Shown here: piece by piece, positions 1-15,701 of the stretch
Layout of the letters: each line of letters begins with the position of its first letter
Numbering within the stretch: position 1 is the first letter of the stretch
From: a virus
Lineage: Duplodnaviria; Heunggongvirae; Uroviricota; Caudoviricetes
Strand: one strand, 5' to 3'
IMG/VR virus record: IMGVR_UViG_643348547_000003
Location: 1 to 28,525 of that record
DNA length: 28,525 nt
Notes under the pieces: generated by a model
Databases searched by the model: none
Seen by the model: the letters and a program-made list of their open reading frames with translations, nothing else
What the model was told of the DNA's origin: nothing
Made by a program: the position numbers and the translations under genes

Positions 1-891
1 TCAGGCTGCCAGATCATCGTTTCCGATGGAAGCATAATAAGCTTTTTCTGCTTCTGCCGGAGGAGTATGGCCCAGCCTTTCCAGCAATCGTCGATTGTTA
101 TACCAGTCCACCCACGTGAGTGTGGCCAGTTCCACTTCTGCACGGTTTTTCCAGCTCTTACGGTGTATTACCTCCGCTTTGTAAAGACCATTGATGCTCT
201 CCGCCATCGCGTTGTCATACGAGTCGCCTGTACTTCCTGTTGATGCCAGTAATCCGGCTTCCTTAAGCCGCTGTGTGTAGGCCAGCGATACATACTGAGA
301 ACCTTTATCACTGTGATGGACCGTGCCGGACGGTCGACGGGCCCATAACGCCTGCTCCAGTGCATCCAGCACGAATGTCGTTTCCATGGACGATGAGACC
401 CGCCACCCCACGATGTATCCGGCAAACACATCAATGATGAACGCCACATAGACGAAGCCCCGCCATGTGCTGACGTAAGTAAAATCAGCCACCCACAGCT
501 GGTCAGGTCGTTCTGCCACGAACTGACGGTTTACGCGGTCGCCTGCGGCAACGGCTTTCCGGCTGATGGTCGTACGGACCTTTTTACCCCGGAGAACACC
601 GGCAAGTCCCATAACCGCCATGAGACGTGCCACAGTGCATCTGGCCACTCTGATACCTTCCCGTAACAACTGACGCCAGACTTTACGCACACCGTATACC
701 TTGTGATTTTCATCGTATACGCGCTGTATCTCTTTCTTCAGCCAGTCATCGCGCTGCGCACGGGCACTGCGTTTATCCGGATGATGTCGCTGTTGCTGAC
801 AGTGGTAATACGTTGACGGGGCAATATGCAGTTCGCTGCATAGCGGTCCGACCCCGTACTGCTCACGCAGCTTATCCAGCAGTGGCATCAT
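1..891 (-). CDS. IS3-family transposase OrfB (DDE catalytic subunit)
   Basis: 296 aa with an integrase-core-like region (WVADFTYV...HSDKGSQY...[15 protein letters not shown]) typical of DDE transposases of the IS3 family. Overlaps orfA by 4 nt. Confidence 0.85.
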
Positions 892-1214
892 TTTTTCCAG
901 AGGCGGTCGAACTCCGCCTTCGCAAAATAAGCGGAAGCCTGGCGAAGGATATCGTTACTGCGGCGCAGTTCACGATTTTCACGTTCCAGCTCTTTCAGAC
1001 GCTGACGTTCAGCGGTGGTGAGCCCTCCATCACCGCCCCCGGTATCCCGCTCATGCTGGCGAACCCAGACACGCAGAGTCTCCGGCGTACAGCCAATCTT
1101 TGGAGCAATGGAACAAATTGTCGCCCATTGTGAGTCATATTCGCTCTGACTTTCCAGAACCATACGGACTGCCCGTTGACGGACTTCGGGGGAAAAACGA
1201 GTATTTTTAGTCAT
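888..1214 (-). CDS. IS3-family transposase OrfA (HTH DNA-binding subunit)
   Basis: 108 aa, [19 protein letters not shown]..., with a C-terminal leucine-zipper-like region ([26 protein letters not shown]) typical of IS3 OrfA. Ends in an A-run overlapping the orfB start, consistent with a programmed -1 frameshift. Confidence 0.85.
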
Positions 1215-1268
1215 CCTGTTTACCTCTTTCTCAGGAAGTTTAGTCTCCAGGATTCCCGGGGCGGTTCA

Positions 1269-2180
1269 GATGCACTAAATTACTGGTATGAAAATTACTG
1301 TAAGGTGCGTCGTAAAACTCATGCTGTAACGCTTGGCAGATTTCGAAAGCATATCTTTCCCTATATCGGTCATTTGCCCGTAAATGACACTCACCTATAT
1401 GAATGGCTGGACTGTTTTGACCGAATTAAACGTAATGCACCAGTTATGGCGGCGTATGTTTTTTCTGACACTAAATTAGCTCTTCGTTTTTGTCGGGTAC
1501 GCCAGTACGCGACGTGTGATGCTTTAAAGGATTTGCGCATGAGTGATGTGGGGCAGATTGCAGGTAAGCGGGATCGGGTTCTGGATGAAGCCGAACTCGG
1601 CCAGCTCTGGAAGGCAATTTTTGTCGAGCCTGATTTAAAACTAATGTCTGAATACACGCGAAAAATGTTTGTGCTTTGTACAGTATTTGGATGTCGAATG
1701 AGTGAAGCCCGATTATCAGAATGGAGCGAATGGGATCTCGAAAGTTGGGTTTGGACTGTACCAAAAGATCACTCAAAAACTGGTGTTGAAATCGTCAGAC
1801 CAGTACCTGAAATTCTACGACAGTGGGTAACGGATGTTCACGAAGAGACAAAACATACTGGTTATGTGCTGGGAAGTCTGCGAATTAGAGAAAGCGTAAG
1901 CAAGATTGGGGGGAAAATCGGTAAACGTTTGGGCCATGAAAAACAATGGTCACTACACGACCTTAGAAGAACGCTATCTACTCATCTAAGTGATCTCGGT
2001 GTTGAATTTTATGTAGTAGAACAACTGTTAGGCCATGCGCTACCTGGCGTGGCAGGTGTTTACAACCGGAGTAAGTTTATGGCTAAAAAACTGGATGCTC
2101 TGGAACTCTGGACTACATATCTCAATAGCATCGCAGGTGCTGATTCAAAAGTGACGATCCTCAAACAAAAGGTTGGTTAA
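1269..2180 (+). pseudogene. int: P4-type tyrosine integrase, 5' end interrupted by the IS insertion
   Basis: The reading frame continues directly from the IS end at 1269 (DALNYWYENY...). The C-terminal catalytic region has tyrosine-recombinase motifs (HDLRRT, LGHA, VYNRS). The N-terminal portion must lie beyond the IS, outside the window; the ORF-track start at 1176 lies inside IS sequence and is an artefact. Confidence 0.8.
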
Positions 2181-2181
2181 C

Positions 2182-2409
2182 ATGAAAAAAATGGCAATTG
2201 TTGATAAAAAGGGTCTGGAGTACATTCCTAACATTGACCGAATGATCCGTGAGAAAGAATGTCGGGAGCTAACCACTCTTGCGAACAGCACACGCTGGAA
2301 GCTGGAGAAGGAAGGAAAATTTCCTAAGCGGATCAAGATTGGTTCCACTGCTGTTGCATATCGTCTTTCAGAAGTGCAGGCATGGATTCGAGGTGAGTGG
2401 GTAGTTTAA
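2182..2409 (+). CDS. alpA: AlpA-family (Phage_AlpA, HTH) regulator or excisionase-like protein
   Basis: About 75 aa with an AlpA-like pattern (TTLANSTRWKLEKEGKFPKRIKIGSTAVAYRLSEVQAWI). Sits immediately downstream of int, as in P4-like and PICI elements. The track start at 2173 is TTG; the ATG at 2182 is preferred. Confidence 0.7.
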   Translation: MKKMAIVDKKGLEYIPNIDRMIREKECRELTTLANSTRWKLEKEGKFPKRIKIGSTAVAYRLSEVQAWIRGEWVV

Positions 2410-2434
2410 ATTATCTCAGAATAAAATATTATGA

Positions 2435-2470
2435 ATTACTGATTTGAGAATTTGTACTCAAATCAGTAAT
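2435..2470. terminator. Perfect 14-bp inverted repeat hairpin between convergent genes (putative bidirectional terminator)
   Basis: ATTACTGATTTGAG (2435..2448), 8-nt loop, CTCAAATCAGTAAT (2457..2470). Lies between the alpA stop (2409) and the stop of the minus-strand gene (2479). Confidence 0.45.
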
Positions 2471-2478
2471 AACATTCT

Positions 2479-3015
2479 TTATAAGAGATTAAATCCAAAT
2501 AAAGAGTAATCATATACCGGGGTGCATTGCATTCCACTGAATATGCTGATGTTTTTTTCTGTTTCTATCCTTTTTTCAATAAGTTGTTGTATATTTTTAC
2601 AGTACAATTTGTGTGTGATGTTATTATCGTAAGCCTGATATAGCAACGTCAATGTTGACGCTAGGAAACATACAGATAAAATTAAAATAATATATGCAGT
2701 TTTTTTATTTTTTGTCCATGATCTATTTGTTTGTGAAATATAAAGAATTCTGAGGTGGATAATGGTGAGAGACAATAGCAGGCCACTCAATAAAATAAGT
2801 ATTGGGTTTGCGTATTTTATTAATGGTTGAGAGCAAAAAACTATTATAGCTCCTGTGACTGCGTATGAGAAAAAGGAGTAATTAAACTTCTTACTCCTTC
2901 TCTCAAGTATTTTAATTTCATCTTGTGTGGGGGTTTTAGATGCCTCTAATATAAGTTTATTGAATGTTTCTGTTATCTTGTTTTTTGTGTTTGTGGCTAT
3001 TTTTTTTAGATTCAT
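2479..3015 (-). CDS. Hypothetical small membrane protein (about 3 predicted TM helices) in an AT-rich cargo segment
   Basis: 178-aa ORF in a strongly AT-rich stretch (about 2410..3330). Hydrophilic N-terminus followed by three hydrophobic segments (AVTGAIIVFCSQPLI, ILILLSGLLLSLTIIHL, AYIILILSVCFLASTLTLL). No family recognised. Confidence 0.6.
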   Translation of the reverse strand: MNLKKIATNTKNKITETFNKLILEASKTPTQDEIKILERRSKKFNYSFFSYAVTGAIIVFCSQPLIKYANPILILLSGLLLSLTIIHLRILYISQTNRSWTKNKKTAYIILILSVCFLASTLTLLYQAYDNNITHKLYCKNIQQLIEKRIETEKNISIFSGMQCTPVYDYSLFGFNLL

Positions 3016-3365
3016 AGCATTCTAACTCCCTTAACTTATTTATTACTTTCTCTTTATGATAAGAGAGGGGAATGACTTGGTAAAGTGATTTGTCATTAAT
3101 AATGATAATCCTTGCGATAAATATTTCTGCAAGTTATTTATCTGTTTGTTGCTATCTTGTTAAGCGTTGGGTGTGGTTTATATTTGGAGCGACTTTATTT
3201 AATCGTGATTTTATGGATTTATATTTATATCCTGTAAGATAAGCGCATGTTAGTTTAGGAGTAGTGTCAGATAAAATTATTCGGAGTAGAACTACCTTTT
3301 CTGTTTATTGCCAGTATTTACATAGCAATGCGCCGTAGTTACTCACATCACGGCGCTGATACTAA

Positions 3366-3668
3366 TTATTCAGATTCTTTGGCTTTACGCCGCTGGAGTT
3401 CTTCACGAGCGACGGCTACGAGTTGCCCGATTTCCTCCGCTGCCTTGATGCCGATTTGTTCGACCTTAGCTAAGGCATCCAGTGAAGACACGAGGGGATT
3501 TTCTCCGCTTCCTTCTGCCTGGCGGCGGGCGATCTCACCGCGCATGGCGGTTACTATGAATCCGGCGTTGCTTTCGCCGTCCAGTTTTACGGATTCCATG
3601 CCCTCCATAACATCGTGGGGAACCCTGATCGTTGTCATTTGCGATTTTGCATTTTTGTATACAGACAT
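3366..3668 (-). CDS. Putative ribbon-helix-helix (Arc/CopG-like) transcriptional regulator
   Basis: 100 aa. The N-terminal segment TTIRVPHDVMEGMESVKLDGESNAGFIVTAMRGEI fits a beta-strand plus two-helix RHH pattern. Transcribed divergently from the replication-side genes, with an operator-like repeat array in between. Confidence 0.55.
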   Translation of the reverse strand: MSVYKNAKSQMTTIRVPHDVMEGMESVKLDGESNAGFIVTAMRGEIARRQAEGSGENPLVSSLDALAKVEQIGIKAAEEIGQLVAVAREELQRRKAKESE

Positions 3669-3688
3669 AGTTAATCACCAATTTGTTA

Positions 3689-3790
3689 TGTGTATATCAC
3701 TATACACAAAAGTGAGATATAAAAACACTTGCAATGTATATCACCACAATATAATGTATATCTCACATTATGGTCGCTATGTATCTCACA
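3689..3790. promoter_or_regulatory. Divergent promoter/operator region with repeated TGTATATC(T)CAC motifs
   Basis: Palindrome TGTGTATA-TCAC-TATACACA at 3689..3708. Related motif copies at 3712..3721 (reverse orientation), 3734..3744, 3754..3767 and 3779..3790. Located between the divergent genes 3366..3668 (minus) and 3877..4242 (plus). Confidence 0.5.
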
Positions 3791-3876
3791 ATGATCGATT
3801 CATAAAAACGACGAAACCCGGCAGTGCGCGAACACTAACCGGGCTTCTAACCAAACCGTTAAACGAGGTAACTATT

Positions 3877-4242
3877 ATGGCTGGAACACAGCATACCCAA
3901 ACTCACCCTAAATTTATATACATCTTTCTGGCGCTACATCGCGATCGCATAGCAGATGGAGCAACTACGGTACATGTAGCCGCTGACACGCTGGTTGATG
4001 CCCGCAAGATGGTTAAGGAGATGGGCTATACTGCGGCTTTCTGGAAAGGGCGGGAAGAAAACACGCTGTTTATTCAGAAATGTGAAAACAATTTCCTCTG
4101 GCGTTTTATCGCCCTGAGTACGACACAACCGCGCGTGATTACCATCGAGGCCACCAGCGAACAGGAAGCCCGCCAGCAATCCCCAACTGGCTGCGTGATG
4201 ATATTCGCCGCCCGTATTCGTCAGGAGGTGTGCCATGAATGA
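3877..4242 (+). CDS. Hypothetical protein (first gene of the rightward operon)
   Basis: 121 aa, ATG at 3877 preceded by GAGG. This is the 3' portion of the long track ORF 3328..4242, whose upstream part is antisense to the RHH gene. No family assigned. Confidence 0.6.
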   Translation: MAGTQHTQTHPKFIYIFLALHRDRIADGATTVHVAADTLVDARKMVKEMGYTAAFWKGREENTLFIQKCENNFLWRFIALSTTQPRVITIEATSEQEARQQSPTGCVMIFAARIRQEVCHE

Positions 4243-4459
4243 TCTTTATTTTAAAGTGCTGACACATGCTGAAAACGCGCTCGTTTGTGGCAAAAATATG
4301 CGAGAAATCTTATCAACCTGGCTTGATGGGACAACAAATGCGGAACACGATGAACGGGATGCTAATTTAGCTGGAGCGTTAATTACGTTACTTGATCCTG
4401 TCATCAAAGAGCTGGATGAAGCTATAAAAATACACGACCAGAGCTATACCGAAGAATAA
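4235..4459 (+). CDS. Hypothetical protein
   Basis: 74 aa. Start overlaps the upstream stop; AGGAGG six nt upstream of the ATG. Confidence 0.5.
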   Translation: MNDLYFKVLTHAENALVCGKNMREILSTWLDGTTNAEHDERDANLAGALITLLDPVIKELDEAIKIHDQSYTEE

Positions 4460-4461
4460 AA

Positions 4462-4749
4462 ATGAAAAATAAATTTTCTGGCTTTATTGCCAGCGGTCAA
4501 GCTCATTCAAAAATCAGCCTTGGGGATATTTTCAAAGATAGCTATGGCTATCGGGTAAAGATTATTTCGGTTGATGATCGCCGTGTCTCTTATTTGCGTG
4601 ATGGTTATGATTTTGAATGTGTTATGCCGCGTCAGCAGTTCGAAAGAGATTTCATTCTGGTAAAAAATTGCAAGACAGATAATCAGAGGCGTGCCGCAGG
4701 CTATATCCGCAAAATTCGGGCAATGTTAGTTGCCGGAGGTAATAAATGA
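4462..4749 (+). CDS. Hypothetical small protein (possibly DUF4222-like; uncertain)
   Basis: 95 aa, tightly packed in the operon. The segment YRVKIISVDDRRVSYLRDGYDFECVMPRQQFERDFILV resembles what I recall of small conserved satellite/prophage proteins, but no search was run. Confidence 0.5.
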   Translation: MKNKFSGFIASGQAHSKISLGDIFKDSYGYRVKIISVDDRRVSYLRDGYDFECVMPRQQFERDFILVKNCKTDNQRRAAGYIRKIRAMLVAGGNK

Positions 4750-4928
4750 AACGTGCTCCGAACTTAAAATACCAACCGCGCGACAAAATGACAGAAGTCA
4801 TCATTTTTGCTGGCAGTGATGCCTAGAGCCATGCAAAAGAATGGAATGAATGGGCGGGTAAGCATATTGCAGCAGATGATACACCACCAGTAATTCTGGG
4901 TACGGAACAACTGGAAAACCTGGATGAT

Positions 4929-6566
4929 ATGCAAATTATCGATGAAGGCCGTCATTATGTGCGTGTTTATCGTGCCGGAAAGATTGCAGAGAAAAATCTG
5001 ACGAAGGTTGCGACATTACTTGCTATTGCAGGCGTAAAGGAAGCACGTTGTTACCGTAGCTTTGTTGATCGAGAGCCTGAAGACTGGACTCCGCGCCTTG
5101 TCGGCCTAAAAGCTGAAGCGGAGCATGGGGAAAGTCTGGTGATTGAACTGCCAGTGAAGAAGGCTGAGCGCAAAAATGACGAGCGTGCTTCATCTTTGGC
5201 GTTGAATCAGATGGGGGCCAGCCAGCGCGGTGAAGTTCTCCTTGCACATTACGGCGGCGAACTGGCAATCAATGCCGACTCTGACACCGTTCATCATTAC
5301 AACGGCGTTGTATGGGAGCCGGTTCAGGATAAAGAGTTACAGCGTGCTATGGCGCAGATTTTCATTGATGCGGAGATCAGCTATTCGCAGAACGCTATTA
5401 AATCGGCGGTAGATACCATGAAGTTAAGTTTGCCTGTAATGGGGAATACAGCCCGTAACCTGATTGGATTCAGTAACGGGGTATTTGATACCAGAACTGG
5501 TAATTTTCGGGAGCATAACAAAAACGACTGGTTGTTAATTGCCAGTGAATTACCTTTCAGCCCACCAGCAGAGGGGGAAACGCTGGCAACACATGCGCCG
5601 AATTTCTGGAAGTGGTTGCGCCGTTCGGTGGCTGAGAATGACCGCAAGGCAGATCGCGTACTGGCGGCATTATTCATGGTGCTGGCGAACCGGTACGACT
5701 GGCAGTTATTCATTGAGGTAACAGGGCCGGGGGGAAGTGGTAAAAGTGTGATGGCGGAGATTTGCACCATGCTGGCGGGTAAGGCTAATACAGTATCAGC
5801 AAGCATGAAGGCGCTGGAAGATGCAAGGGAACGTGCGTTAGTGGTTGGCTTTTCGCTGATTATCATGCCGGATATGACCCGCTACGCTGGTGATGGGGCA
5901 GGGATTAAGGCCATTACAGGCGGTGACAAGGTGGCAATTGACCCGAAACACAAAGCCCCCTATTCAACGCGTATTCCGGCAGTAGTGCTGGCGGTTAACA
6001 ATAACGCCATGTCATTCAGTGACCGCAGCGGGGGGATCTCACGTCGTCGGGTGATATTCAATTTTTCGGAAGTTGTACCGGAGAACGAACGCGATTCGAT
6101 GCTGGCGGAAAAAATAGAAGGTGAGCTGGCGGTAGTGATTCGTCATCTGCTTACAAGGTTTGCTGATCAGGACGAAGCCAGACGCCTGTTATATGAGCAG
6201 CAGAAATCTGAAGAAGCACTGGCGATAAAGCGAGAGGGGGATTCGCTGGTGGACTTCTGCGGTTATCTCATGGCATCGGTAATGTGTGATGGCCTGTTAG
6301 TGGGTAATGCTGAAATTGTGCCATTCAGCCCACGCAGGTATCTCTATCATGCCTATCTGGCTTATATGAGGGCACATGGGTTTGGTAAACCTGTAACACT
6401 GACGCGCTTCGGTAAAGATATGCCGGGGGCAATGGCGGAATATGGCAGGGAGTATATGAAACGGAAAACGAAGCACGGTTTGCGTTCAAACGTGACCCTG
6501 ACGGAGGAATCAGAAGACTGGATGCCATCATGTGTATCGGTCACTAATGACGATAGCAAAAATTAA
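4929..6566 (+). CDS. Replication protein, P4 alpha C-terminal / D5-like SF3 helicase-NTPase family
   Basis: 545 aa. Walker A motif VTGPGGSGKSV, Walker B-like LIIMPDMT, and a D5_N-like region (VVWEPVQDKELQRAMAQIFID). No obvious toprim primase domain. Immediately followed by an iteron array. Confidence 0.8.
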   Translation: MQIIDEGRHYVRVYRAGKIAEKNLTKVATLLAIAGVKEARCYRSFVDREPEDWTPRLVGLKAEAEHGESLVIELPVKKAERKNDERASSLALNQMGASQRGEVLLAHYGGELAINADSDTVHHYNGVVWEPVQDKELQRAMAQIFIDAEISYSQNAIKSAVDTMKLSLPVMGNTARNLIGFSNGVFDTRTGNFREHNKNDWLLIASELPFSPPAEGETLATHAPNFWKWLRRSVAENDRKADRVLAALFMVLANRYDWQLFIEVTGPGGSGKSVMAEICTMLAGKANTVSASMKALEDARERALVVGFSLIIMPDMTRYAGDGAGIKAITGGDKVAIDPKHKAPYSTRIPAVVLAVNNNAMSFSDRSGGISRRRVIFNFSEVVPENERDSMLAEKIEGELAVVIRHLLTRFADQDEARRLLYEQQKSEEALAIKREGDSLVDFCGYLMASVMCDGLLVGNAEIVPFSPRRYLYHAYLAYMRAHGFGKPVTLTRFGKDMPGAMAEYGREYMKRKTKHGLRSNVTLTEESEDWMPSCVSVTNDDSKN

Positions 6567-6580
6567 ACTTATGGAATAAC

Positions 6581-6801
6581 TGTTCACCACTGTTCACCCT
6601 GTCATAAATATCTTTTATATCAGTATATTATAGGGTGAACAGTTATTTATGAACTGTTCACCAAACTATTCACTGTTCACCTTTTTGATTGTTTATTGAG
6701 CTTCAAGGGTGAACAGTGGTGAACAGTTGGTGAATAGTTTTTGTGAAACTGTTCACCCATTAACATTATGAATTAAAAGAGAAAATATCAAAAGGTGAAC
6801 A
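6581..6801. repeat. Iteron array (putative satellite replication origin): about 9 copies of TGTTCACC / GGTGAACA
   Basis: TGTTCACC at 6581, 6591, 6655, 6674 and 6750. Reverse-orientation GGTGAACA at 6634, 6708, 6718 and 6794. This octamer is the iteron I recall from the P4 ori and crr, bound by the alpha protein. Confidence 0.7.
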
Positions 6802-6853
6802 GGTGAAGGGTTAAAACGCAAAAATTTTAATTTACTGCTGTGAGATAAAGCCT

Positions 6854-7099
6854 ATGACAGCGAAGCACACAAAAAAATCACAATCGCACGCCCTTGATTT
6901 GACGGAACACTGGTTAAGGGTGTCGATAAAAATCATCGACCGCAACGCCGGGGAAGGATACGCGAAAGCACATCCCGAACTGATTAGCGCATTCATGACA
7001 ACGGCGGCTGCAAACTTTGCCACTCTGACCGAACGGGAGATTGCTGAAGCGGAGGAAGTGACAACAATCAATATTAAGTCCGGAGAGCAGGCAGCATGA
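6854..7099 (+). CDS. Hypothetical protein
   Basis: 81 aa. Stop overlaps the start of the SSB-like gene (ATGA). Weak ribosome-binding site. Confidence 0.45.
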   Translation: MTAKHTKKSQSHALDLTEHWLRVSIKIIDRNAGEGYAKAHPELISAFMTTAAANFATLTEREIAEAEEVTTINIKSGEQAA

Positions 7100-7545
7100 C
7101 GGCGCAAATATCAGTTTACGGGCGGTTGGTGGACGACCCGCAGACAAAACAGACCAGCAAGGGCACCCCCATGACGCTGGCGCGTATGGCGGTATCACTG
7201 CCCTGCAGTCAGTCGGATGACGGTCAGGCGACGATGTGGTTATCTGTCCTGGCGTTTGGCAGACAAGCCGACGCGCTGGCAAAGCATCACAAAGGCGAAC
7301 TCCTGAGCGTGGCGGGTAATATGCAGGTGAGCCAGTGGACTGGACAGAACGGTGAAACGCGGCAGGGCTGGCAGGTTATCGCAGACAGCGTAATCAGTGC
7401 GCGAACGGTGCGACCGGGCGGCAAAAAAGGTCAACAGGGTCAGGCTACTGACGCACTGAACAGAGCAAAACAACAGGCAGATCAGCAAGGAAGCCATCCA
7501 CCAGTGGGAGATAATGAGCAATGGGGAGATGATATTCCGTTTTAA
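7096..7545 (+). CDS. Single-stranded DNA-binding protein (SSB-like)
   Basis: 149 aa. N-terminal OB-fold-like region, a Gly/Gln-rich linker and a C-terminal acidic tail ending DDIPF, the hallmark of the bacterial SSB C-terminus. Confidence 0.7.
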   Translation: MTAQISVYGRLVDDPQTKQTSKGTPMTLARMAVSLPCSQSDDGQATMWLSVLAFGRQADALAKHHKGELLSVAGNMQVSQWTGQNGETRQGWQVIADSVISARTVRPGGKKGQQGQATDALNRAKQQADQQGSHPPVGDNEQWGDDIPF

Positions 7546-7563
7546 ATATTGCCAATAAAAAAG

Positions 7564-7588
7564 GCCGGAAAAAAATAAATTTTCCGGC
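7564..7588 (+). terminator. Stem-loop downstream of the SSB-like gene (weak terminator candidate)
   Basis: GCCGGAAAA (7564..7572), 7-nt loop, TTTTCCGGC (7580..7588). No clear 3' U-tract. Confidence 0.35.
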
Positions 7589-7762
7589 ATGCTACATAAA
7601 TCCCGACCAAAGGGAGTGAAGATATTAACACTAATTATCCGCGCTGGAGTTGTTATCCCAAAACTTTATACAACATTGCACTCGGTTGCATGTATTCGCA
7701 TGACAAATATCGGTGATAGCATATATCCACAATTATTTTTAATGAATGCAAAGAGGATGCGT

Positions 7763-8803
7763 ATGGTTGATTTATATTCGCCTACCCAGCTTGTACAGGT
7801 GGTTAATGCTGTAGATGTACAAAAACAACTAAATGCGTTGTTTACCAGTTTGTTTTTTACTCGCTCGGTAATGTTTGAATCGCGCGATATTATTCTTGAT
7901 ACAATCGACGATCCAAATATCCCAATTGCAGCGTTTTGTTCTCCTATGGTAGGTAGTAAAGTTTCACGTGACGAAGGGTACGAATCAAAAACAATTCGTC
8001 CAGGCTATATGAAGCCGAAAAGCAGCATTGATCCAAATAAGTTAGCTGTGCGCCCTGCTGGTGTATCACCTGAGCAATACAATGCTTTTGGAGCGCGTAA
8101 TATTAAAGTTAAACAGGCGATTGTAAATCAGGCTAAAGCTATTCGTGCACGTATTGAATGGTTTGCCGTTCAGGCAATCACAACGGGGAAAAATATCATT
8201 GAGGGCGATGGTATTGAACGTTATGAGCTGGACTGGAATATAAAACCACAAAATATCATCACTCAGTCTGGCGGTACTGAGTGGTCAGGTAAGGATAAAG
8301 AAACTTTTGATCCAAATGATGATATTGAGAGCTACGCAGAATTTAGTGAGGGCGTCACTAATATCATCATTATGGGCGGTAATGTATGGAAGAAATACCG
8401 TTCATTCAGAGCGATAAAAGAGGCTCTGGATACCCGTCGTGGTTCTAATTCCGAACTGGAAACGGCCCTTAAAGACCTTGGTGATTCGGTGAGTTTTAAA
8501 GGGTATATGGGCGATGTTGCGATTGTTGTATACAGCGGGCGTTATACCGACGAGGACGGAACTGAAAAACATTTCCTTGATCCTGATTTGATGGTGCTTG
8601 GCAATACGGCTCTTCAGGGGATTGTCGCCTATGGCGGTATTCAGGATCCGGAGCTAATCCGAATGGGGCTGACTAAAGCCGAACTTGCACCGAAAAACTA
8701 TATTGTGCCTGGTGATCCGGCTATTGAATATGTGCAGACACATTCAGCACCACAGCCAATACCGGCCCGCATCAATCGTTTTGTTACCGTTCGCATTGGC
8801 TAA
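7763..8803 (+). CDS. Major capsid protein, phage lambda gpE family (divergent homolog)
   Basis: 346 aa from the ATG at 7763 (AAGAGGA five nt upstream). Alignable along its length to lambda gpE, with shared motifs NIITQSGGTEWS, DTRRGSNSELETA and GDVAIVVYSG. The 5' extension of the track ORF (7589..7762) is probably untranslated. Confidence 0.85.
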   Translation: MVDLYSPTQLVQVVNAVDVQKQLNALFTSLFFTRSVMFESRDIILDTIDDPNIPIAAFCSPMVGSKVSRDEGYESKTIRPGYMKPKSSIDPNKLAVRPAGVSPEQYNAFGARNIKVKQAIVNQAKAIRARIEWFAVQAITTGKNIIEGDGIERYELDWNIKPQNIITQSGGTEWSGKDKETFDPNDDIESYAEFSEGVTNIIIMGGNVWKKYRSFRAIKEALDTRRGSNSELETALKDLGDSVSFKGYMGDVAIVVYSGRYTDEDGTEKHFLDPDLMVLGNTALQGIVAYGGIQDPELIRMGLTKAELAPKNYIVPGDPAIEYVQTHSAPQPIPARINRFVTVRIG

Positions 8804-8812
8804 GGGGGAGCA

Positions 8813-9154
8813 ATGGCTACTCATTACACTGAACTCATGGCTGGCACTGAAGCACTGGTGACTACGCTGGGGATATTTTCAGCTAATAAAGGGGTAATTC
8901 CTGCATTTACGCCACTGATGCAGGAAGATGCAACAGGTGCACTGGTGGTATGGGATGGTTCGAGCGTAGGTAAAGCGGTTTATGTTTCCGCTGTACAAAT
9001 CGACACCGCGAAAAAAACACAGGCTCAGGTCTATAAGACAGGTGTCTTAAATGTTGATGCTCTGAACTGGCCTGAGTCTGTAAAAGAACTGTCAGTAAAG
9101 ATTGCAGCGTTTGTTGGCTCAGGTATTTCTGTTCAGCCGCTGGCTCGTGTGTAA
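8813..9154 (+). CDS. Head decoration protein, lambda gpD-like
   Basis: 113 aa. TPLMQEDATGALVVWDGSSVG and YKTGVLNVDALNWPE...AAFVGSGISV parallel lambda gpD. Lies downstream of the E-like gene, the reverse of the lambda D then E order. Confidence 0.75.
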   Translation: MATHYTELMAGTEALVTTLGIFSANKGVIPAFTPLMQEDATGALVVWDGSSVGKAVYVSAVQIDTAKKTQAQVYKTGVLNVDALNWPESVKELSVKIAAFVGSGISVQPLARV

Positions 9155-9165
9155 AGGGGGATACA

Positions 9166-9549
9166 ATGCAGAATGATTACAATGACCTTAAGCCACTTGC
9201 CGAAATGATGTACCCGAATCCAGCTGTAGAGGAATTAAAAGCTATCGCTGACAAAATGTGTTTAAGCGAGCGCCTTGTTGATATGAATCAGGTGATGGAA
9301 ATTACAACCCTGAGTCGGCGTACACTGCTAAACCTTGAGGCTAGTGGAGAGTTCCCGGAGCGTGTGCAGGTTACGGAAGGGCGTAAGGCCTGGTATTTAA
9401 GTGAAGTGATCGACTGGATAAATAATATTCCTCGCGCTTCTGAATATTGCCGCGTACCTGTCCCAAAAAAGCCAGATGCGGCGCTATGCCTCAAGATTGA
9501 GCGTGTACGCCGCAATGCACGGGATGGTCGCTATAAGCTGATTGGTTGA
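9166..9549 (+). CDS. AlpA-family HTH regulator with an N-terminal extension
   Basis: 127 aa. Core MEITTLSRRTLLNLEASGEFPERVQVTEGRKAWYLSEVIDWI matches the AlpA/HTH_17 pattern. Second AlpA-like gene in the island. Confidence 0.65.
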   Translation: MQNDYNDLKPLAEMMYPNPAVEELKAIADKMCLSERLVDMNQVMEITTLSRRTLLNLEASGEFPERVQVTEGRKAWYLSEVIDWINNIPRASEYCRVPVPKKPDAALCLKIERVRRNARDGRYKLIG

Positions 9550-9557
9550 TGAAATTA

Positions 9558-9581
9558 GGGCCCGCTCTGGCTGGCGGGTCC
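9558..9581 (+). terminator. GC-rich stem-loop after the second AlpA-like gene
   Basis: GGGCCCGC, 8-nt loop, GCGGGTCC, followed by TTTCC. Imperfect stem and short U-tract. Confidence 0.3.
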
Positions 9582-9713
9582 TTTCCGGCGATCTGACAGG
9601 CTACGGGGCGTCAGGCGCGCAGTTTTTTGCTATTTGTGAAAATTTTCCTGTTTAAGGCGTTTCCGTTCTTCTTCGCCGTAACTTAATGTTTTTATTAAAA
9701 ACACCCCCTAAAA

Positions 9714-9770
9714 AGAAAGGAAACGACAGGTGCTAAAAACAGGCTTTTTGGCCTCTGTCGTTTCCTTTCT
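9714..9770. other. Long perfect 16-bp inverted repeat (structured RNA or bidirectional terminator) in a roughly 600-bp non-coding spacer
   Basis: AGAAAGGAAACGACAG (9714..9729), 25-nt loop with an inner mini-hairpin, CTGTCGTTTCCTTTCT (9755..9770). Lies between convergent genes. Confidence 0.4.
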
Positions 9771-10147
9771 CTGGTTTTGTTGCCATCCGTCGCGGTCTAT
9801 CACCAGAAAAAATCTTATCCCTGAGTTGAATCAGGCCCTATTCAGAAGCGGTCAATAACGCGCCGCTAGCTTCACTTCATAGTTATGGCCTACTTCTGCG
9901 CCATTGCAATTGCTTTATGCGCCTTGATGGTGGAATATAGAGCAAGCAGTTTGCGAATAACAAAGTTTCATATGTTTTTTGCTGTGTGGCTAGACAACTT
10001 TACAGCAGAGTTTTGTGTCAGTTCTTTATGTGTGCAAGCAAGCTTGAGGGGGAATTACTTCTGGCTGCATCTTTGCTTAAGAACAGCAATAATTTAATCA
10101 TAAGGAAATGTATATAAGCCTGATTAAATTTCAGGCTTATTGAAATG

Positions 10148-11290
10148 TTAACTCCTTATTAGAGAGTAAATTCCATCCTCTTTAAGGAAGTCTATTACTT
10201 CAAAGAATGAGATAAAGAATTCCCAAGAACCAAAAGCATATGCATGAATTTCGTAAGGTGCAAAATGGAATCTAAATCCATCACTATTTATTGTGAACGA
10301 GTCTAAGTTACTATCCATGATACCCGTTGCAAACGTACTAATGTCGTCCTCACTTGGTTTTTCACCAGTTTTCTCCCAAAATTCACGAGCTGATTCAGAG
10401 ATTATTTTTTGTTTTATCTTATTAATCGCTTCTTGCTCTTTCCCTTCGGTAAATACATCCCATAAACTAAATTTGTATGCGTAGTCATCCTTGGTTATTA
10501 CGAAATTACTAGTTTCAAAATGACTGTTAGGGTGTGCTGCTCCCGCACCATACCAATGTACGGAATGAAGGATGCTCATAACATTTTCGTTACAGTATGA
10601 GATGTTATAACTTTCATTATAGGAACTAGTGTAAGTGTGTTTATATTCTTCATCCCAATATGGTGTTCCTGGCCATAGTGATGTGCGTTCAGAAAAAATA
10701 TGTAAAGCCGCTTTTCCTGAAAAGTAATCACTAATGAGTTTTGCTGATTTCGGTAATGTATGGCTTTCAATTCTTGGATATGCTATTTCAATTTCATGCC
10801 CTGGGATCTTGTTATATTCTTCCTTGAAAACCTCGCTGCTAAAGTTAAATGGCCCATAAGTGATACCTTGAGATATTTCAAGTTTTTGTTGCGATGCTGC
10901 TAATCTTAAAGATCTAGATAAAATGTCCCAACCATCATTTCTCTTAAAATCAATGAATTGGAGCTTGCTTGATATGTAGGCGGGTACTTCGCAATCATCA
11001 ATAAGTAATGGTATCACGAACACATCATCTGGTTTGTAATACTTTAGTTTATCAATGGCGTCATTTATTTCGCGGCGAATATAACCATTTTTCTGAGTGC
11101 TCACTTTGCTAAGGATAAGGATTATCAAGTTTGAATTAGCGAAGTTTTTTTGGATTTCATAATCCCAGTTTACGCCAGCGGGTATATCTTTTACATCCAT
11201 CCAAGGGGAATATCCTCCACTTTTTAGCCTTTCATAGATTTCTTCAGTTATCGTTTCATCTTCTTTTGCATGAGCAAGAAAAATTTTCAT
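10148..11290 (-). CDS. TIR-domain protein with a C-terminal DUF3298/RsiV-like domain (candidate antiphage effector)
   Basis: 380 aa in an AT-rich segment. The N-terminal 140 aa or so carry TIR-like hallmarks (KIFLAHAKEDE...W.D...I..G......I.ILSKVS...NGYIRREI). The C-terminal region contains HWYGAGAAHPNSHFETSNF...LWDVF, resembling the Y-x-GGAHG signature of DUF3298. SD-like AAGGA upstream of the start. No partner gene adjacent. Confidence 0.75.
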   Translation of the reverse strand: MKIFLAHAKEDETITEEIYERLKSGGYSPWMDVKDIPAGVNWDYEIQKNFANSNLIILILSKVSTQKNGYIRREINDAIDKLKYYKPDDVFVIPLLIDDCEVPAYISSKLQFIDFKRNDGWDILSRSLRLAASQQKLEISQGITYGPFNFSSEVFKEEYNKIPGHEIEIAYPRIESHTLPKSAKLISDYFSGKAALHIFSERTSLWPGTPYWDEEYKHTYTSSYNESYNISYCNENVMSILHSVHWYGAGAAHPNSHFETSNFVITKDDYAYKFSLWDVFTEGKEQEAINKIKQKIISESAREFWEKTGEKPSEDDISTFATGIMDSNLDSFTINSDGFRFHFAPYEIHAYAFGSWEFFISFFEVIDFLKEDGIYSLIRS

Positions 11291-11499
11291 TGAATATTCC
11301 TTTATAATTTAACTAATTAAGTGAAGGAGGCTTTACTTGGCTGTGTTAGAAAAAATTCGGTTTGTTTTTTGTACGATGCCAAGAAGGCTTTTCCCTAACC
11401 ATGTATTGCAGCATGTATTGCTACGTAATTCTGCACCCTCTCATTTATAAAATAAATCTCTGTTAAATCAAGTATCTTTTTTCTATTTGACTCATGTAA

Positions 11500-12288
11500 C
11501 CCAAGCATGAGGTGAATCCGCAGATGACCCTGCGTCGCCTGCCGGATGAAGATCCGCAGAATCTGGCGGACCCGGCTTACCGCCGCCGTCGCATCATCAT
11601 GCAGAACATGCGTGACGAAGAGCTGGCCATTGCTCAGGTCGAAGAGATGCAGGCCGTTTCTGCCGTGCTTAAGGGCAAATACACCATGACCGGTGAAGCC
11701 TTCGATCCGGTTGAGGTGGATATGGGCCGCAGTGCGGCGAATAACATCACGCAGTCCGGCGGCACGGAGTGGAGCAAGCGTGACAAGTCCACGTATGACC
11801 CGACCGACGATATCGAAGCCTACGCGCTGAACGCCAGCGGTGTGGTGAATATCATCGTGTTTGATCCGAAAGGCTGGGCGCTGTTCCGTTCCTTCAAAGC
11901 CGTCAAGGAGAAGCTGGATACCCGTCGTGGCTCTAATTCCGAGCTGGAGACAGCGGTGAAAGACCTGGGTAAAGCGGTGTCCTATAAGGGGATGTATGGC
12001 GATGTTGCCATCGTCGTGTATTCCGGACAGTACGTGGAAAACGGCGTCAAAAAGAACTTCCTGCCGGACAACACGATGGTGCTGGGGAACACTCAGGCAC
12101 GCGGTCTGCGTACCTATGGCTGTATTCAGGATGCGGACGCACAGCGCGAAGGCATTAACGCCTCTGCCCGTTACCCGAAAAACTGGGTGACCACCGGCGA
12201 TCCGGCGCGTGAGTTCACCATGATTCAGTCAGCACCGCTGATGCTGCTGGCTGACCCTGATGAGTTCGTGTCCGTACAACTGGCGTAA
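11500..12288 (+). pseudogene. E: Lambda major capsid protein E, 5'-truncated fragment (about C-terminal 260 aa)
   Basis: Translation PKHEVNPQMTLRRLPDEDPQNLADPAYRRRRIIMQNMRDEE... to ...DPDEFVSVQLA matches my recollection of lambda gpE from about residue 80 to the end. An in-frame TAA sits immediately upstream (11497..11499) and the upstream sequence is unrelated. Confidence 0.85.
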
Positions 12289-12329
12289 TCGTGGCCCTTC
12301 GGGGCCATTTTCTCTCTGTGGAGGAGTCC

Positions 12330-12728
12330 ATGACGAAAGATGAACTGATTGCCCGTCTCCGCTCGCTGGGTGAACAACTGAACCGTGATGTCAGTCTGAC
12401 GGGGACGAAAGAAGAACTGGCGCTCCGTGTGGCAGAGCTGGAAGAAGAGCTTGATGACACGGGCGACACTGCCGGTCAGGATACCCCTCTCAGCCCGGAA
12501 AATGTGCTGACCGGGCATGAACATGAGGTGGTATCAGCGCAGCCGGATACCGTGATTCAGGATACGGCTGAACTGGTCACGGTCGTGGCACTGGTGACGC
12601 TGCATACTGATGCACTTCACGCCACGCGGGATGAACCTGTGGCATTTGTGCTGCCGGGAACGGCGTTCCGTGTCTCTGCCGGTGTGGCAGCTGAAATGAC
12701 AGAGCGCGGCCTGGCCAGAATGCAATAA
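12330..12728 (+). CDS. FI: Lambda-like FI (DNA packaging / head-tail joining accessory protein)
   Basis: 132 aa, MTKDELIARLRSLGEQLNRDVSLTGTKEELALRVAELEEELDD..., near-identical to lambda gpFI as I recall it. GGAGGAG ribosome-binding site. Confidence 0.9.
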   Translation: MTKDELIARLRSLGEQLNRDVSLTGTKEELALRVAELEEELDDTGDTAGQDTPLSPENVLTGHEHEVVSAQPDTVIQDTAELVTVVALVTLHTDALHATRDEPVAFVLPGTAFRVSAGVAAEMTERGLARMQ

Positions 12729-12739
12729 CGGGAGGCGCT

Positions 12740-13093
12740 GTGGCTGATTTCGATAACCTGTTCGATGCTGCCATTGCCCGCGCCGATGAAACGATACGCG
12801 GGTACATGGGAACGTCAGCCACCATGACATCCGGTGAGCAGTCCGGCGCAGTAATACGTGGTGTTTTTGATGACCCTGAAAATATCAGCTATGCCGGACA
12901 GGGCGTGCGCGTTGAAGGCTCCAGCCCGTCCCTGTTTGTCCGGACTGATGATGTGCGGCAACTGCGGCGTGGAGACACGCTGACCATCGGTGAGGAAAAC
13001 TTCTGGATAGATCGTGTTTCGCCGGATGATGGCGGAAGCTGTCATCTCTGGCTTGGGCGGGGCGTACCGCCTGCCGTTAACCGTCGCCGCTGA
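12740..13093 (+). CDS. FII: Lambda-like FII (head-tail connector)
   Basis: 117 aa, MADFDNLFDAAIARADETIRGYMG...HLWLGRGVPPAVNRRR, matching lambda gpFII. Confidence 0.9.
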   Translation: MADFDNLFDAAIARADETIRGYMGTSATMTSGEQSGAVIRGVFDDPENISYAGQGVRVEGSSPSLFVRTDDVRQLRRGDTLTIGEENFWIDRVSPDDGGSCHLWLGRGVPPAVNRRR

Positions 13094-13104
13094 AAGGGGG
13101 ATGT

Positions 13105-13683
13105 ATGGCCATAAAAGGTCTTGAGCAGGCCGTTGAAAACCTCAGCCGTATCAGCAAAACGGCGGTGCCTGGTGCCGCCGCAATGGCCATTAACCGCGTT
13201 GCTTCATCCGCGATATCGCAGTCGGCGTCACAGGTTGCCCGTGAGACAAAGGTACGCCGGAAACTGGTAAAGGAAAGGGCCAGGCTGAAAAGGGCCACGG
13301 TTAAAAATCCGCAGGCCAGAATCAAGGTTAACCGGGGGGATTTGCCCGTAATAAAGCTGGGTAACGCGCGGATTGTCCTGTCCCGACGCAGGCGTCGTAA
13401 AAAGGGGCAGCGTTCAGCCCTGAAAGGTGGCGGCAGCGTGCTTGTGGTGGGAAACCGTCGTATTCCCGGCGCGTTTATTCAGCAACTGAAAAATGGCCGC
13501 TGGCATGTTATGCAGCGTGTGGCCGGGAAAAACCGTTACCCCATTGATGTGGTGAAAATCCCGATGGCGGTGCCACTGACCACGGCGTTTAAACAGAATA
13601 TTGAACGGATACGGCGTGAGCGTCTTCCGAAAGAGCTGGGCTATGCGCTGCAGCATCAACTGAGAATGGTAATAAAGCGATGA
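13105..13683 (+). CDS. Z: Lambda-like Z (tail completion protein)
   Basis: 192 aa, MAIKGLEQAVENLSRISKTAVPGAAAMAINRV..., matching lambda gpZ. Confidence 0.9.
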   Translation: MAIKGLEQAVENLSRISKTAVPGAAAMAINRVASSAISQSASQVARETKVRRKLVKERARLKRATVKNPQARIKVNRGDLPVIKLGNARIVLSRRRRRKKGQRSALKGGGSVLVVGNRRIPGAFIQQLKNGRWHVMQRVAGKNRYPIDVVKIPMAVPLTTAFKQNIERIRRERLPKELGYALQHQLRMVIKR

Positions 13684-14075
13684 AACATACTGAACTCCGT
13701 GCAGCCGTACTGGATGCACTGGAGAAGCATGACACCGGGGCGACGCTTTTTGATGGTCGCCCCGCTGTTTTTGATGAGGCGGATTTTCCGGCAATTGCCG
13801 TTTATCTCACCGGCGCTGAATACACGGGCGAAGAGCTGGACAGCGATACCTGGCAGGCGGAGCTGCATATTGAAGTTTTCCTGCCTGCTCAGGTGCCGGA
13901 TTCAGAGCTGGATTCGTGGATGGAGTCCCGGATTTATCCGGTGATGAGCGATATTCCGGCACTGTCAGATTTGATCACCAGTATGGTGGCCAGTGGCTAT
14001 GACTACCGACGCGACGATGATGCGGGCCTGTGGAGTTCAGCCGATCTGACGTATGTCATTACCTATGAAATGTGA
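13680..14075 (+). CDS. U: Lambda-like U (tail terminator protein)
   Basis: 131 aa, [38 protein letters not shown]..., matching lambda gpU. ATGA overlap with Z. Confidence 0.9.
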
Positions 14076-14082
14076 GGACGAT

Positions 14083-14823
14083 ATGCCTGTACCAAATCCA
14101 GTAATGCCGGTGAAAGGTGCCGGGACCACACTGTGGGTTTATAAGGGGAACGGTGACCCTTATGCGAACCCGCTTTCAGACGTTGACTGGTCGCGTCTGG
14201 CAAAAGTTAAAGACCTGACGCCCGGCGAACTGACCGCTGAGTCCTATGACGACAGCTATCTCGATGATGAGGATGCGGACTGGACTGCGACCGGGCAGGG
14301 GCAGAAATCTGCCGGAGATACCAGCTTCACGCTGGCGTGGATGCCCGGAGAGCAGGGGCAGCAGGCGCTGCTGGCGTGGTTTAATGAAGGTGATACCCGT
14401 GCCTATAAAATCCGCTTTCCGAACGGCACGGTCGATGTGTTCCGTGGCTGGGTCAGCAGTATCGGTAAGGCGGTGACGGCGAAGGAAGTGATCACCCGCA
14501 CGGTGAAGGTCACCAATGTGGGACGCCCGTCGATGGCTGAAGATCGCAGTACGGTGACGGCGGCAACCGGCATGACGGTAACGCCAGCCAGTGCGTCCGT
14601 AGTGAAAGGGCAGAGCACCACGCTGACCGTGGCATTCCAGCCGGAAGGCGTAACCGACAAGAGCTTCCGTGCGGTGTCTGCGGATAAAACAAAAGCCACC
14701 GTGTCGGTCAGTGGTATGACCATCACCGTGAACGGCGTTGCTGCAGGCAAGGTCAACATTCCGGTTGTATCCGGTAATGGTGAGTTTGCTGCGGTTGCAG
14801 AAATTACCGTCACCGCCAGTTAA
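14083..14823 (+). CDS. V: Lambda-like V (major tail protein with C-terminal Ig-like domain)
   Basis: 246 aa from the internal ATG at 14083 ([22 protein letters not shown]...), matching lambda gpV. The track ORF start at 14053 is upstream of the conserved start. Confidence 0.9.
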
Positions 14824-14838
14824 TCCGGAGAGTCAGCG

Positions 14839-15261
14839 ATGTTCCTGAAAACCGAATCATTTGAACATAACGGTGTGACCGTCACGCTTTCTGAACTGTC
14901 AGCCCTGCAGCGCATTGAGCATCTCGCCCTGATGAAACGGCAGGCAGAACAGGCGGAGTCAGACAGCAACCGGAAGTTTACTGTGGAAGACGCCATCAGA
15001 ACCGGCGCGTTTCTGGTGGCGATGTCCCTGTGGCATAACCATCCGCAGAAGACGCAGATGCCGTCCATGAATGAAGCCGTTAAACAGATTGAGCAGGAAG
15101 TGCTTACCACCTGGCCCACGGAGGCAATTTCTCATGCTGAAAACGTGGTGTACCGGCTGTCTGGTATGTATGAGTTTGTGGTGAATAATGCCCCTGAACA
15201 GACAGAGGACGCCGGGCCCGCAGAGCCTGTTTCTGCGGGAAAGTGTTCGACGGTGAGCTGA
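14839..15261 (+). CDS. G: Lambda-like G (tail assembly chaperone)
   Basis: 140 aa, MFLKTESFEHNGVTVTLSELSALQRIEHLALMKRQAEQ..., matching lambda gpG. Confidence 0.9.
   Translation: MFLKTESFEHNGVTVTLSELSALQRIEHLALMKRQAEQAESDSNRKFTVEDAIRTGAFLVAMSLWHNHPQKTQMPSMNEAVKQIEQEVLTTWPTEAISHAENVVYRLSGMYEFVVNNAPEQTEDAGPAEPVSAGKCSTVS
15237..15243 (+). other. Programmed -1 ribosomal frameshift site (G GGA AAG) for the G-T fusion
   Basis: Slippery heptamer GGGAAAG near the 3' end of G, at the point where the T frame opens. This is the conserved lambda G/GT recoding site. Confidence 0.8.
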
Positions 15262-15701
15262 GTTTTGCCCTGAAACTGGCGCGTGAGATGGGGCGACCCG
15301 ACTGGCGTGCCATGCTTGCCGGGATGTCATCCACGGAGTATGCCGACTGGCACCGCTTTTACAGTACCCATTATTTTCATGATGTTCTGCTGGATATGCA
15401 CTTTTCCGGGCTGACGTACACCGTGCTCAGCCTGTTTTTCAGCGATCCGGAGATGCATCCGCTGGATTTCAGTCTGCTGAATCGGCGCGAGGCTGACGAA
15501 GAGCCTGAAGATGATGTGCTGATGCAGAAAGCGGCAGGGCTTGCCGGAGGCGTTCGTTTTGGCCCGGACGGGAATGAAGTTATCCCCGCTTCCCCGTATG
15601 TGGCGGACATGACGGAGGATGACGTAATGCTGATGACAGTATCAGAAGGGATCGCAGGAGGAGTCCGGTATGGCTGCACCGGTAGGCGATCTGGTCGTTG
15701 A
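15243..15701 (+). CDS. T: Lambda-like T segment of the G-T tail assembly chaperone (expressed by -1 frameshift from G)
   Basis: ORF in the -1 frame overlapping the G end (FDGELSFALKLAREMGRPDWRAMLAGMSSTEYADWHRFY...), matching lambda gpT. No independent start is expected. Confidence 0.85.
   Translation: MFDGELSFALKLAREMGRPDWRAMLAGMSSTEYADWHRFYSTHYFHDVLLDMHFSGLTYTVLSLFFSDPEMHPLDFSLLNRREADEEPEDDVLMQKAAGLAGGVRFGPDGNEVIPASPYVADMTEDDVMLMTVSEGIAGGVRYGCTGRRSGR

Follow-up and report, generated by a model that had tools for sequence, protein, structure and literature searches.

The window analysed here is the whole of a 28,525-nucleotide stretch (positions 1 to 28,525 of the IMG/VR virus record IMGVR_UViG_643348547_000003, Caudoviricetes), and the AT-rich segment that follows its int and alpA genes forms the accessory portion of a phage satellite's exchangeable dynamic zone. 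The satellite itself is already known and is the helper-embedded phage-inducible chromosomal island (HE-PICI) 11capE (Tommasini et al. 2023, PMC10111431). The segment contains a genuine gene for a protein of 178 aa, an optional gene of the island that shares its strand with a leftward regulator gene of the ribbon-helix-helix (RHH) type and lies downstream of it. Judged from its sequence, the protein defines a rare and unannotated family of small membrane proteins with three predicted helices. As a tentative reading, we propose that it is a phage-exclusion factor expressed during lysogeny, more likely to block genome entry than to act by abortive infection. A first-pass annotation of the same DNA had described the segment as cargo next to int and alpA encoding a lone membrane protein; the identity of the satellite, the travel of the gene with its leftward RHH regulator and the family members outside Escherichia coli go beyond that description.

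The 11capE island was assigned to the site E:Phage_cap_E:80 by Tommasini, Mageeney and Williams in 2023, with its founding copy in E. coli NRG857c (PMC10111431). Over positions 2400-3340 the window is 99.3% identical to NRG857c, with the same genes in the same order, and BLASTN gave 99.3% identity over 1270-3996 and 99.4% over 4061-7000. In two relatives with an intact left end, locus L001 and the NRG857c locus (L002), a 10.7-kb island splits a lambda-like prophage's major capsid gene. The gene's N-terminal part is found ahead of int and its C-terminal part beyond the island, the arrangement that defines an HE-PICI. In the window the C-terminal part of the helper capsid gene is found at 11512-12288, and the left junction lies beyond an insertion sequence (IS). 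The genes of the island are ordered int, alpA, the 178-aa gene, the YlcI/YnfO-family gene that is the leftward regulator, an Icd-like gene, DUF4222, primase and single-stranded DNA-binding protein (SSB), followed by the island's own capsid and decoration genes, a helix-turn-helix gene and a variable end gene. This is the layout of the 11capE group, in which the dynamic zone comes after AlpA and an integrase of the 11capE clade and is itself followed by the replication zone with primase and SSB and by the late zone with the satellite's own capsid gene. Lying between the zones for integration and replication, the dynamic "Bro" zone has been described in terms of Bro-network DNA-binding proteins and immunity RNAs (PMC10111431), and the 178-aa gene is not discussed in the text of that paper.

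The window consists of E. coli DNA, and the segment was found by megablast in 67 of 5426 complete genomes and is chromosomal in each of them. The int-alpA pair is present at an identity of at least 95% in 176 complete genomes, 67 of which carry the 178-aa gene; genes for TIR, putAbiC, DUF2971 or unknown proteins are found instead, in keeping with the variable cargo that the first-pass annotation had expected beside int and alpA. When the window was compared by BLASTN with the loci L003, L004, L005, L007, L019 and L020, similarity ended at 2400-2414 and returned at 3824-4099, the left limit falling in the last codons of alpA. In another locus, L016, the module is kept up to 3658 and is joined there to a different rightward arm. 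The AT-rich segment is therefore only part of the exchangeable unit, which also takes in the regulator gene and has its limits at about 2401 and 3823-4096.

At least seven alternative contents occur between alpA and the Icd-like gene, as is characteristic of a hotspot. Two sub-positions make up this cargo slot: the first follows alpA, on the plus strand, and the second the leftward regulator, on the minus strand. The first is occupied by a TIR protein (PADLOC PDC-S35, E 7e-67), by DUF2971 proteins or by unknown proteins of 467 and 273 aa, and the second by the 178-aa protein, by putAbiC (PF16872, E 3e-16) or by an unknown protein of 241 aa. Within the satellite slot the 178-aa family is confined to the second sub-position. 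A uniformly present core gene with a structural role, which the first-pass annotation had named as the finding that would speak against cargo, is not what is seen, the 178-aa gene being neither core nor structural. A passage of PMC11364771, citing Fillol-Salom et al. 2022, reports immune systems at the 5' or 3' ends of phage-inducible chromosomal islands (PICIs). The immune hotspots of PICIs and P4-like elements (PMC11364771; Rousset et al. 2022, PMC9122126) likewise vary in content at a fixed integrase-end position among near-identical islands, and as in those hotspots recognisable defence genes are among the alternatives in the present slot. Unlike the catalogued hotspot cargo, the 178-aa family is in no defence catalogue searched (PADLOC 2.0).

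The 178-aa gene occupies a stop-free run of 180 codons, compared with a mean of 67 in shuffles of 2410-3365, of which one in 5000 reached 178 (p ~2e-4). It had been described as the only open reading frame (ORF) of the region. It is the sole credible gene, but there is one other ORF of at least 40 aa, a 50-aa frame with a TTG start in the spacer towards the regulator, which probably arose by chance. All 20 copies on viral contigs are intact 178-aa genes, and their variation is confined to residues 83-118. Alleles from E. coli (L016, L044-L055) show a sharply bounded mosaic patch at codons 83-118, with about 32% nucleotide divergence against about 1% elsewhere. On the protein the patch corresponds to the cytoplasm-proximal half of helix 2, the loop and helix 3, and it could be the result of recombination or of diversifying selection. 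The nonsynonymous and synonymous divergences (dN and dS) in the patch are 0.37 and 0.51, respectively; the rest of the gene has a dN/dS of about 0.08 (four changes), and that of the whole gene between the two main E. coli alleles is about 0.5.

This last value, together with frameshifts at homopolymer runs in some database copies, would be expected if the ORF had no function and were a chance frame or a decaying remnant in AT-rich filler. Such an explanation is highly improbable, as it is opposed by the ORF length, by the low dN/dS outside the mosaic patch and by the 20 intact viral copies. A chance ORF is in addition already contradicted by the conservation of the family, homologues of which are found in other genera at 20-37% identity with conserved motifs and an invariant cysteine pair.

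The family was delineated by searches of increasing depth. A word-indexed search returned only E. coli copies with at least 83% identity. An exhaustive HMMER search of 1.84 billion cluster representatives yielded seven distant representatives of 113-175 aa at 30-37% identity; searching with a profile brought in members from Pseudomonas mandelii, Pseudomonas sp. R3-56 and metagenomes. Across 13 sequences the residues P71, C139, Q143, F159 and C164 are invariant. The family is characterised by the motif QPLxK[YF]ANP between helices 1 and 2 and the motif HDxYCxxxQ...EKNSxIFNNMxCR past helix 3; in the window protein the former is the QPLIKYANP turn at residues 63-71, and C139 and C164 are located in the C-terminal part. 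In every host checked, the GC content of the gene is below that of its contig.

Hydrophobic segments are found at residues 48-66, 72-90 and 107-125 (Kyte-Doolittle, 19-residue windows). The N-terminal 47 residues contain 11 lysines or arginines and 5 aspartates or glutamates, and the loop between helices 2 and 3 contains four of the former and none of the latter. Across the family the charge distribution obeys the positive-inside rule for an N-in/C-out protein. Hydropathy and charge prediction thus agree with the first-pass annotation, which had given the protein about three transmembrane (TM) helices and a cytoplasmic N terminus, and the C terminus is predicted to be outside. With such a topology the TM1-TM2 turn and the C-terminal ~50 residues with the two invariant cysteines are predicted to face the periplasm, and a disulfide between C139 and C164 is plausible. 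An AlphaFold model made from the family alignment is all-helical with a mean predicted local distance difference test score (pLDDT) of 77.9; a single-sequence model was poor (pLDDT 54).

Diverged forms of the protein also follow RHH regulators. The 37%-identity form lies 66 nt after a 59-aa RHH ORF in an HE-PICI at the same capsid-gene site (L024, L056), and the 31%-identity form lies 30 nt after a DUF3950-type RHH gene in another HE-PICI at that site (L057). The same order of regulator and relative, adjoining alpA and a DUF2971 gene, is seen in L034. The 59-aa RHH-type ORF, the leftward regulator of its satellite, is unannotated in L024 (7752-7931, plus strand) and was missed by the gene caller.

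Three diverged versions, each after a different version of the RHH regulator in same-site HE-PICIs, could represent a working pair, and this would suit a role in the life cycle of the satellite, be it in the timing of helper lysis (holin/antiholin-like), in interference with the helper or in the relay of a membrane signal to the RHH regulator. The island and its helper are moreover tightly linked elements, the one interrupting the major capsid gene of the other (PMC10111431). Several findings nevertheless make a life-cycle role quite unlikely. The same RHH regulator types also occur without a membrane protein of the 178-aa family (L003, L004), and the regulator is therefore independent of the family. 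The E. coli form is missing from 109 of the 176 int-alpA islands, and the 37% and 31% forms were not found in complete E. coli genomes. The family also exists outside satellites, on Pseudomonas chromosomes and in defence islands. Finally, no holin family was matched by any of 13 members, and lambda S105 has an N-out/C-in topology, the reverse of the one predicted here.

The remaining relatives have diverse surroundings, and an all-against-all BLASTP of the neighbours revealed no neighbour gene that is conserved across the contexts of distant relatives. In P. mandelii (L011, 8303-11559) the relative is 49 nt downstream of the reverse transcriptase (RT)-protease gene of a type XI retron; it faces a DUF4238 gene, a Fic gene is nearby, and the whole looks like a small defence island. 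A partnership with the retron was considered for this relative and rejected, since no other relative has a retron nearby, and the retron is taken only as part of a defence-island neighbourhood. The type XI retron is an RT with a fused trypsin-like protease domain for which no separate associated gene is named (Mestre et al., PMC7736814), and PADLOC lists it as a single gene. In L008 a relative is near a Hachiman HamB helicase, and in L012 the distances from a relative to a PDC-M29A ATPase and to a pyocin S gene pair are 3.7 kb and about 3 kb, respectively. Another relative (L025, L027) is about 1 kb from an Imm42 gene and, in L025, adjoins an integrase fragment.

The Imm42 and pyocin S neighbours raise the question whether the protein is an orphan that confers immunity to a toxin acting on membranes, for example a pore-forming colicin or pyocin or an effector of the contact-dependent or type VI kind, and protects its host from competitors and not from phages. 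Its predicted size and topology do resemble those of the E1-type immunity proteins of pore-forming colicins, which are of similar size and have an N-in/C-out three-helix topology, and the gene is AT-rich and horizontally acquired. However, none of the 13 members matched a Pfam colicin or bacteriocin immunity family at E values up to 0.1. Neither in the window nor in any satellite copy does the gene adjoin a toxin gene, and the window has no colicin gene. The recurrent place of the gene is the satellite regulator operon, and its recognisable neighbours are phage-defence genes. A role in toxin immunity is therefore unlikely.

The transcriptional setting of the gene was examined in the window. 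In 300-nt windows the GC content is 0.28-0.31 from 2401 to 3300, as opposed to 0.42-0.46 over int and alpA and 0.52 over the regulator gene, which bears out the sharp shift to AT-rich DNA noted in the first-pass annotation; the ORF itself has 0.30, the spacer 0.33 and the regulator gene 0.52. The perfect 14-bp hairpin reported at one end of the segment is likewise present, with fully complementary arms, between the convergent stop codons of alpA (2409) and the 178-aa ORF (2479). As RNA it folds with -18.5 kcal/mol on the plus strand and -21.2 kcal/mol on the minus strand (z -5.2 and -6.0), and none of 200 shuffles was as good. It is 100% conserved in L016, a locus with the 89% allele, and looks like a putative two-way terminator. 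At the other end, the flank of about 350 bp described as non-coding and AT-rich contains no credible gene, and an Rfam scan for regulatory RNAs in it gave no match. This spacer is 99.1% identical in L016, and it corresponds to gaps of just 66 nt in L024 and 30 nt in L057.

A promoter scan found a sigma-70-like site on the minus strand (TTTACC-17-TATCAT, 3084 to 3056) with 9 of 12 matches. The GC-rich stem-loop directly past the regulator stop codon is followed by no U-run, and the minus strand of 3300-3368 folds with -20.4 kcal/mol (z -2.35). From these properties the stem-loop is probably a weak terminator or none, and read-through from the regulator into the 178-aa gene is thus possible. The regulator matches NCBIfam YlcI_YnfO_N (E 8.5e-20) and PHROG 6522 (E 1.7e-61). 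The leftward regulators of sister islands (59-69 aa) align with it, some of them matching HicB, RHH_1 or DUF3950, and by sequence the leftward regulators of these islands look like RHH proteins. In the stretch from int to primase, the 178-aa gene and the leftward regulator are the only genes found antisense to the helper late operon.

In the reading that we favour, lysogens would transcribe the 178-aa gene from a promoter of its own, by read-through of the regulator gene or in both ways, in a manner comparable to lambda cI-rexAB and P22 mnt-sieA. We infer such expression from the strand shared with the regulator, the stem-loop without a U-run and the near-contiguous genes in the diverged islands. 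The protein would act at the inner membrane and guard the lysogen, satellite and helper together, against superinfecting phages. As to its mode of action, a block of genome entry (superinfection exclusion) would come first because the conserved features are predicted to be periplasmic and no sensor partner is conserved; a suicide-type membrane effector would come second and immunity to a membrane toxin third.

The closest analogue appears to be P22 SieA, which is not a homologue. SieA is a protein of the inner membrane (162-164 aa) with three predicted helices that blocks DNA injection (PMC10883804). Its gene has a layout like that of the 178-aa gene, with low GC content, leftward orientation, a place downstream of the RHH repressor gene mnt and an antisense position within the late region. 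In sequence SieA is unrelated (hhalign probability of 0.6% against the family profile), and its helix arrangement differs, with one N-terminal helix and a long loop before the other two helices. The SieA motif FxRYPxEAxxFNK, predicted to be cytoplasmic, is absent from the 178-aa protein, the conserved features of which are predicted to be periplasmic.

Several points weigh against phage exclusion. No homology to any phage-resistance protein was found in PADLOC, Pfam, PHROGs, NCBIfam, PDB sequences or 50,697 phage genomes. The first-pass annotation had suggested that small membrane proteins in such hotspots are often superinfection-exclusion or abortive-infection factors, and the remote homology search it proposed did not reveal a known protein of either kind. 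Specifically, PADLOC-DB 2.0 (5027 models) gave no match for the query at E values up to 1 and none for five relatives at E values up to 0.1. There was no credible match to Pfam or PHROGs for the protein or its relatives, none to NCBIfam for the protein, none to PDB sequences in a profile search with the family, and none in a tblastn search of the phage genomes. A tblastn search of plasmids gave one weak match in Pantoea (E 6e-3), and a literature search found the protein accessions in no paper. Fold searches returned generic helix bundles only.

Further points on that side concern the gene and its setting. The defence-gene context amounts to guilt by association, and some relatives lie amid ordinary chromosomal genes (L031, L013) or near toxin-immunity genes (L025, L012). 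Expression in the lysogen is deduced from gene arrangement, and sigma-70-like sites are no more numerous in the region than in shuffles. Topology and disulfide are predictions, and the allelic variation on the cytoplasm-proximal TM2-loop-TM3 part does not obviously accord with a purely periplasmic action. Frameshifts are present in some database copies, at an A7 run (codon 104; P0006, with 20 member sequences, and P0007, with 35) or at a T6 run (codon 59; P0008), and could reflect sequencing errors, decay, a costly gene or on/off switching.

The last two observations would be accommodated if the protein were an abortive-infection effector that stays inert in the inner membrane until a phage triggers it and then, like RexB, depolarises or permeabilises the membrane and kills the cell before phage release. 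The frameshifted alleles could then mean a cost of carriage, and the variable cytoplasm-proximal part is where a phage trigger or inhibitor would act. Lambda RexB is a polytopic inner-membrane protein that is encoded downstream of the immunity regulator and expressed in the lysogen. The 178-aa protein is likewise small, predicted to be polytopic in the inner membrane, and encoded after a repressor-like gene as rexB is after cI. In sister islands the membrane-anchored putAbiC protein (PF16872) occupies the same sub-slot in the same orientation right after the RHH gene, and relatives of the 178-aa protein are found beside abortive-type systems (type XI retron, Hachiman).

These similarities have limits, and an abortive mechanism is rather unlikely. 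RexB needs the cytoplasmic sensor RexA, whereas the 178-aa family has no conserved cytoplasmic sensor partner in any context. No RexB-type match was obtained in the phage collection, which should include lambda, a direct comparison with RexB not having been made. putAbiC differs from the 178-aa protein in having one N-terminal helix and a large soluble domain, with an hhalign probability of 0.1%, and the 178-aa protein has no Pfam match. The Pseudomonas members have only a short cytoplasmic N-terminal part or none, and the best-conserved features are predicted to face the periplasm. Matches to DUF4231 of the SLATT clan (15.6 bits, cut-off 24.7) and to Saf_2TM (PF18303; 14.1 bits, cut-off 29.5) are below threshold, occur in one of 13 members, and were rejected as noise from hydrophobic composition.

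Phage exclusion at the stage of genome entry is accordingly kept as the preferred, if tentative, reading. A wider version of it, which we regard as doubtful, would make the family a new one of single-gene, lysogeny-expressed inner-membrane phage-exclusion factors that act from the periplasmic face and are unrelated to SieA, Imm, RexB and the catalogued systems. In such a family the QPLxK[YF]ANP turn and a disulfide-clamped helical hairpin might, for instance, obstruct either an entry receptor in the inner membrane or the tape-measure or ejection conduit. The carriers would be HE-PICIs, where the gene belongs to the RHH regulator operon, and more rarely defence islands of Pseudomonas and other bacteria. 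In a more remote variant the protein would sense injection and signal to the RHH regulator. The features of the region are collected in Table 1.

Table 1. Coordinates of features at the left end of the window
Feature	Position	Strand	Details
IS3-family insertion sequence	1-1268	-	orfA 888-1214, orfB 1-891; ALIL frameshift pseudoknot RF01497 at 817-933
Satellite tyrosine integrase remnant	1269-2180	+	first 108 codons removed by the IS3-family element ending at 1268
alpA, AlpA-family excisionase/regulator	2182-2409	+	Pfam Phage_AlpA, E 2.8e-15; last codons form the left edge of the module
Exchangeable module (dynamic/Bro zone)	2401-3823		hairpin, 178-aa gene, spacer, RHH regulator gene, divergent promoter region
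Perfect inverted repeat	2435-2470		arms 2435-2448 and 2457-2470, 14 nt, 100% complementary, 8-nt loop
Gene for 178-aa predicted three-helix inner-membrane protein	2479-3015	-	ATG start, GGGAG 10 nt upstream
AT-rich spacer	3016-3365		350 nt between regulator gene and 178-aa gene; holds the ribosome-binding site
GC-rich stem-loop	3329-3356	-	directly past regulator stop codon, no U-run following
Leftward regulator, 100 aa, YlcI/YnfO family, RHH-like N-terminal part	3366-3668	-	upstream of 178-aa gene, same strand

Compared with the 11capE founder, the copy in the window is crippled, its integrase gene being cut by the IS and its primase gene carrying an internal stop. The window matches L001, a relative with intact int, from 1269 onward only, and the integrase has 411 aa in L001 and L002. 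Because the start of the integrase has been lost to the IS, the satellite in the window is probably unable to excise, and the helper capsid gene would consequently stay split. The primase gene (4746-6566) has an in-frame stop in the window, and its long ORF begins at 4929. The same gene is a RefSeq pseudogene with an internal stop in AR_0013, which is 99.96% identical to the window over 1269-15340, and is intact with 606 aa in NRG857c.

Other parts of the island showed additional features. The satellite has its own lambda-E-like major capsid and head-decoration genes at 7763-9154 while the helper capsid gene is interrupted, and over their C-terminal part the capsid proteins of satellite and helper share about 46-48% identity. 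An indel of about 65-75 bp (window 3996-4061; L002 13587-13597) distinguishes the Icd-like gene of the window, which encodes 121 aa, from that of NRG857c, which encodes 96 aa. A sub-threshold Rfam match to the SymR antisense RNA at 3810-3882 on the minus strand (E 3e-4; 35.3 bits, gathering score 61) includes the start, at 3877, of the Icd-like gene and may be due to chance or may be an antisense regulator in the divergent promoter region. A second variable spot is present at the 3' end of the satellite. There the window encodes a TIR protein of 380 aa (10148-11290, minus strand; PADLOC Aga_TIR-like, E 1.6e-17), and NRG857c (L002, 19579-21295) has a HEPN protein and a DUF262 protein (NsnA, E 2e-59; also PD-T4-2-like).

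It was not until 2023 that satellites residing inside a helper prophage were described, and the accessory genes they carry have so far been unexamined. The present analysis adds a two-part cargo slot next to alpA that holds recognisable defence genes, a recurrent link between an RHH regulator and a membrane protein, and the definition of a family with motifs that are predicted to face the periplasm. The design of the family is simple, comprising three helices and, as predicted, a periplasmic cysteine pair. Should the protein have no effect on phages, it would be one more orphan membrane protein on a mobile element. If, on the other hand, it does exclude phages, it would constitute a new single-gene membrane defence, with which the satellite would shield both itself and the helper that it interrupts.

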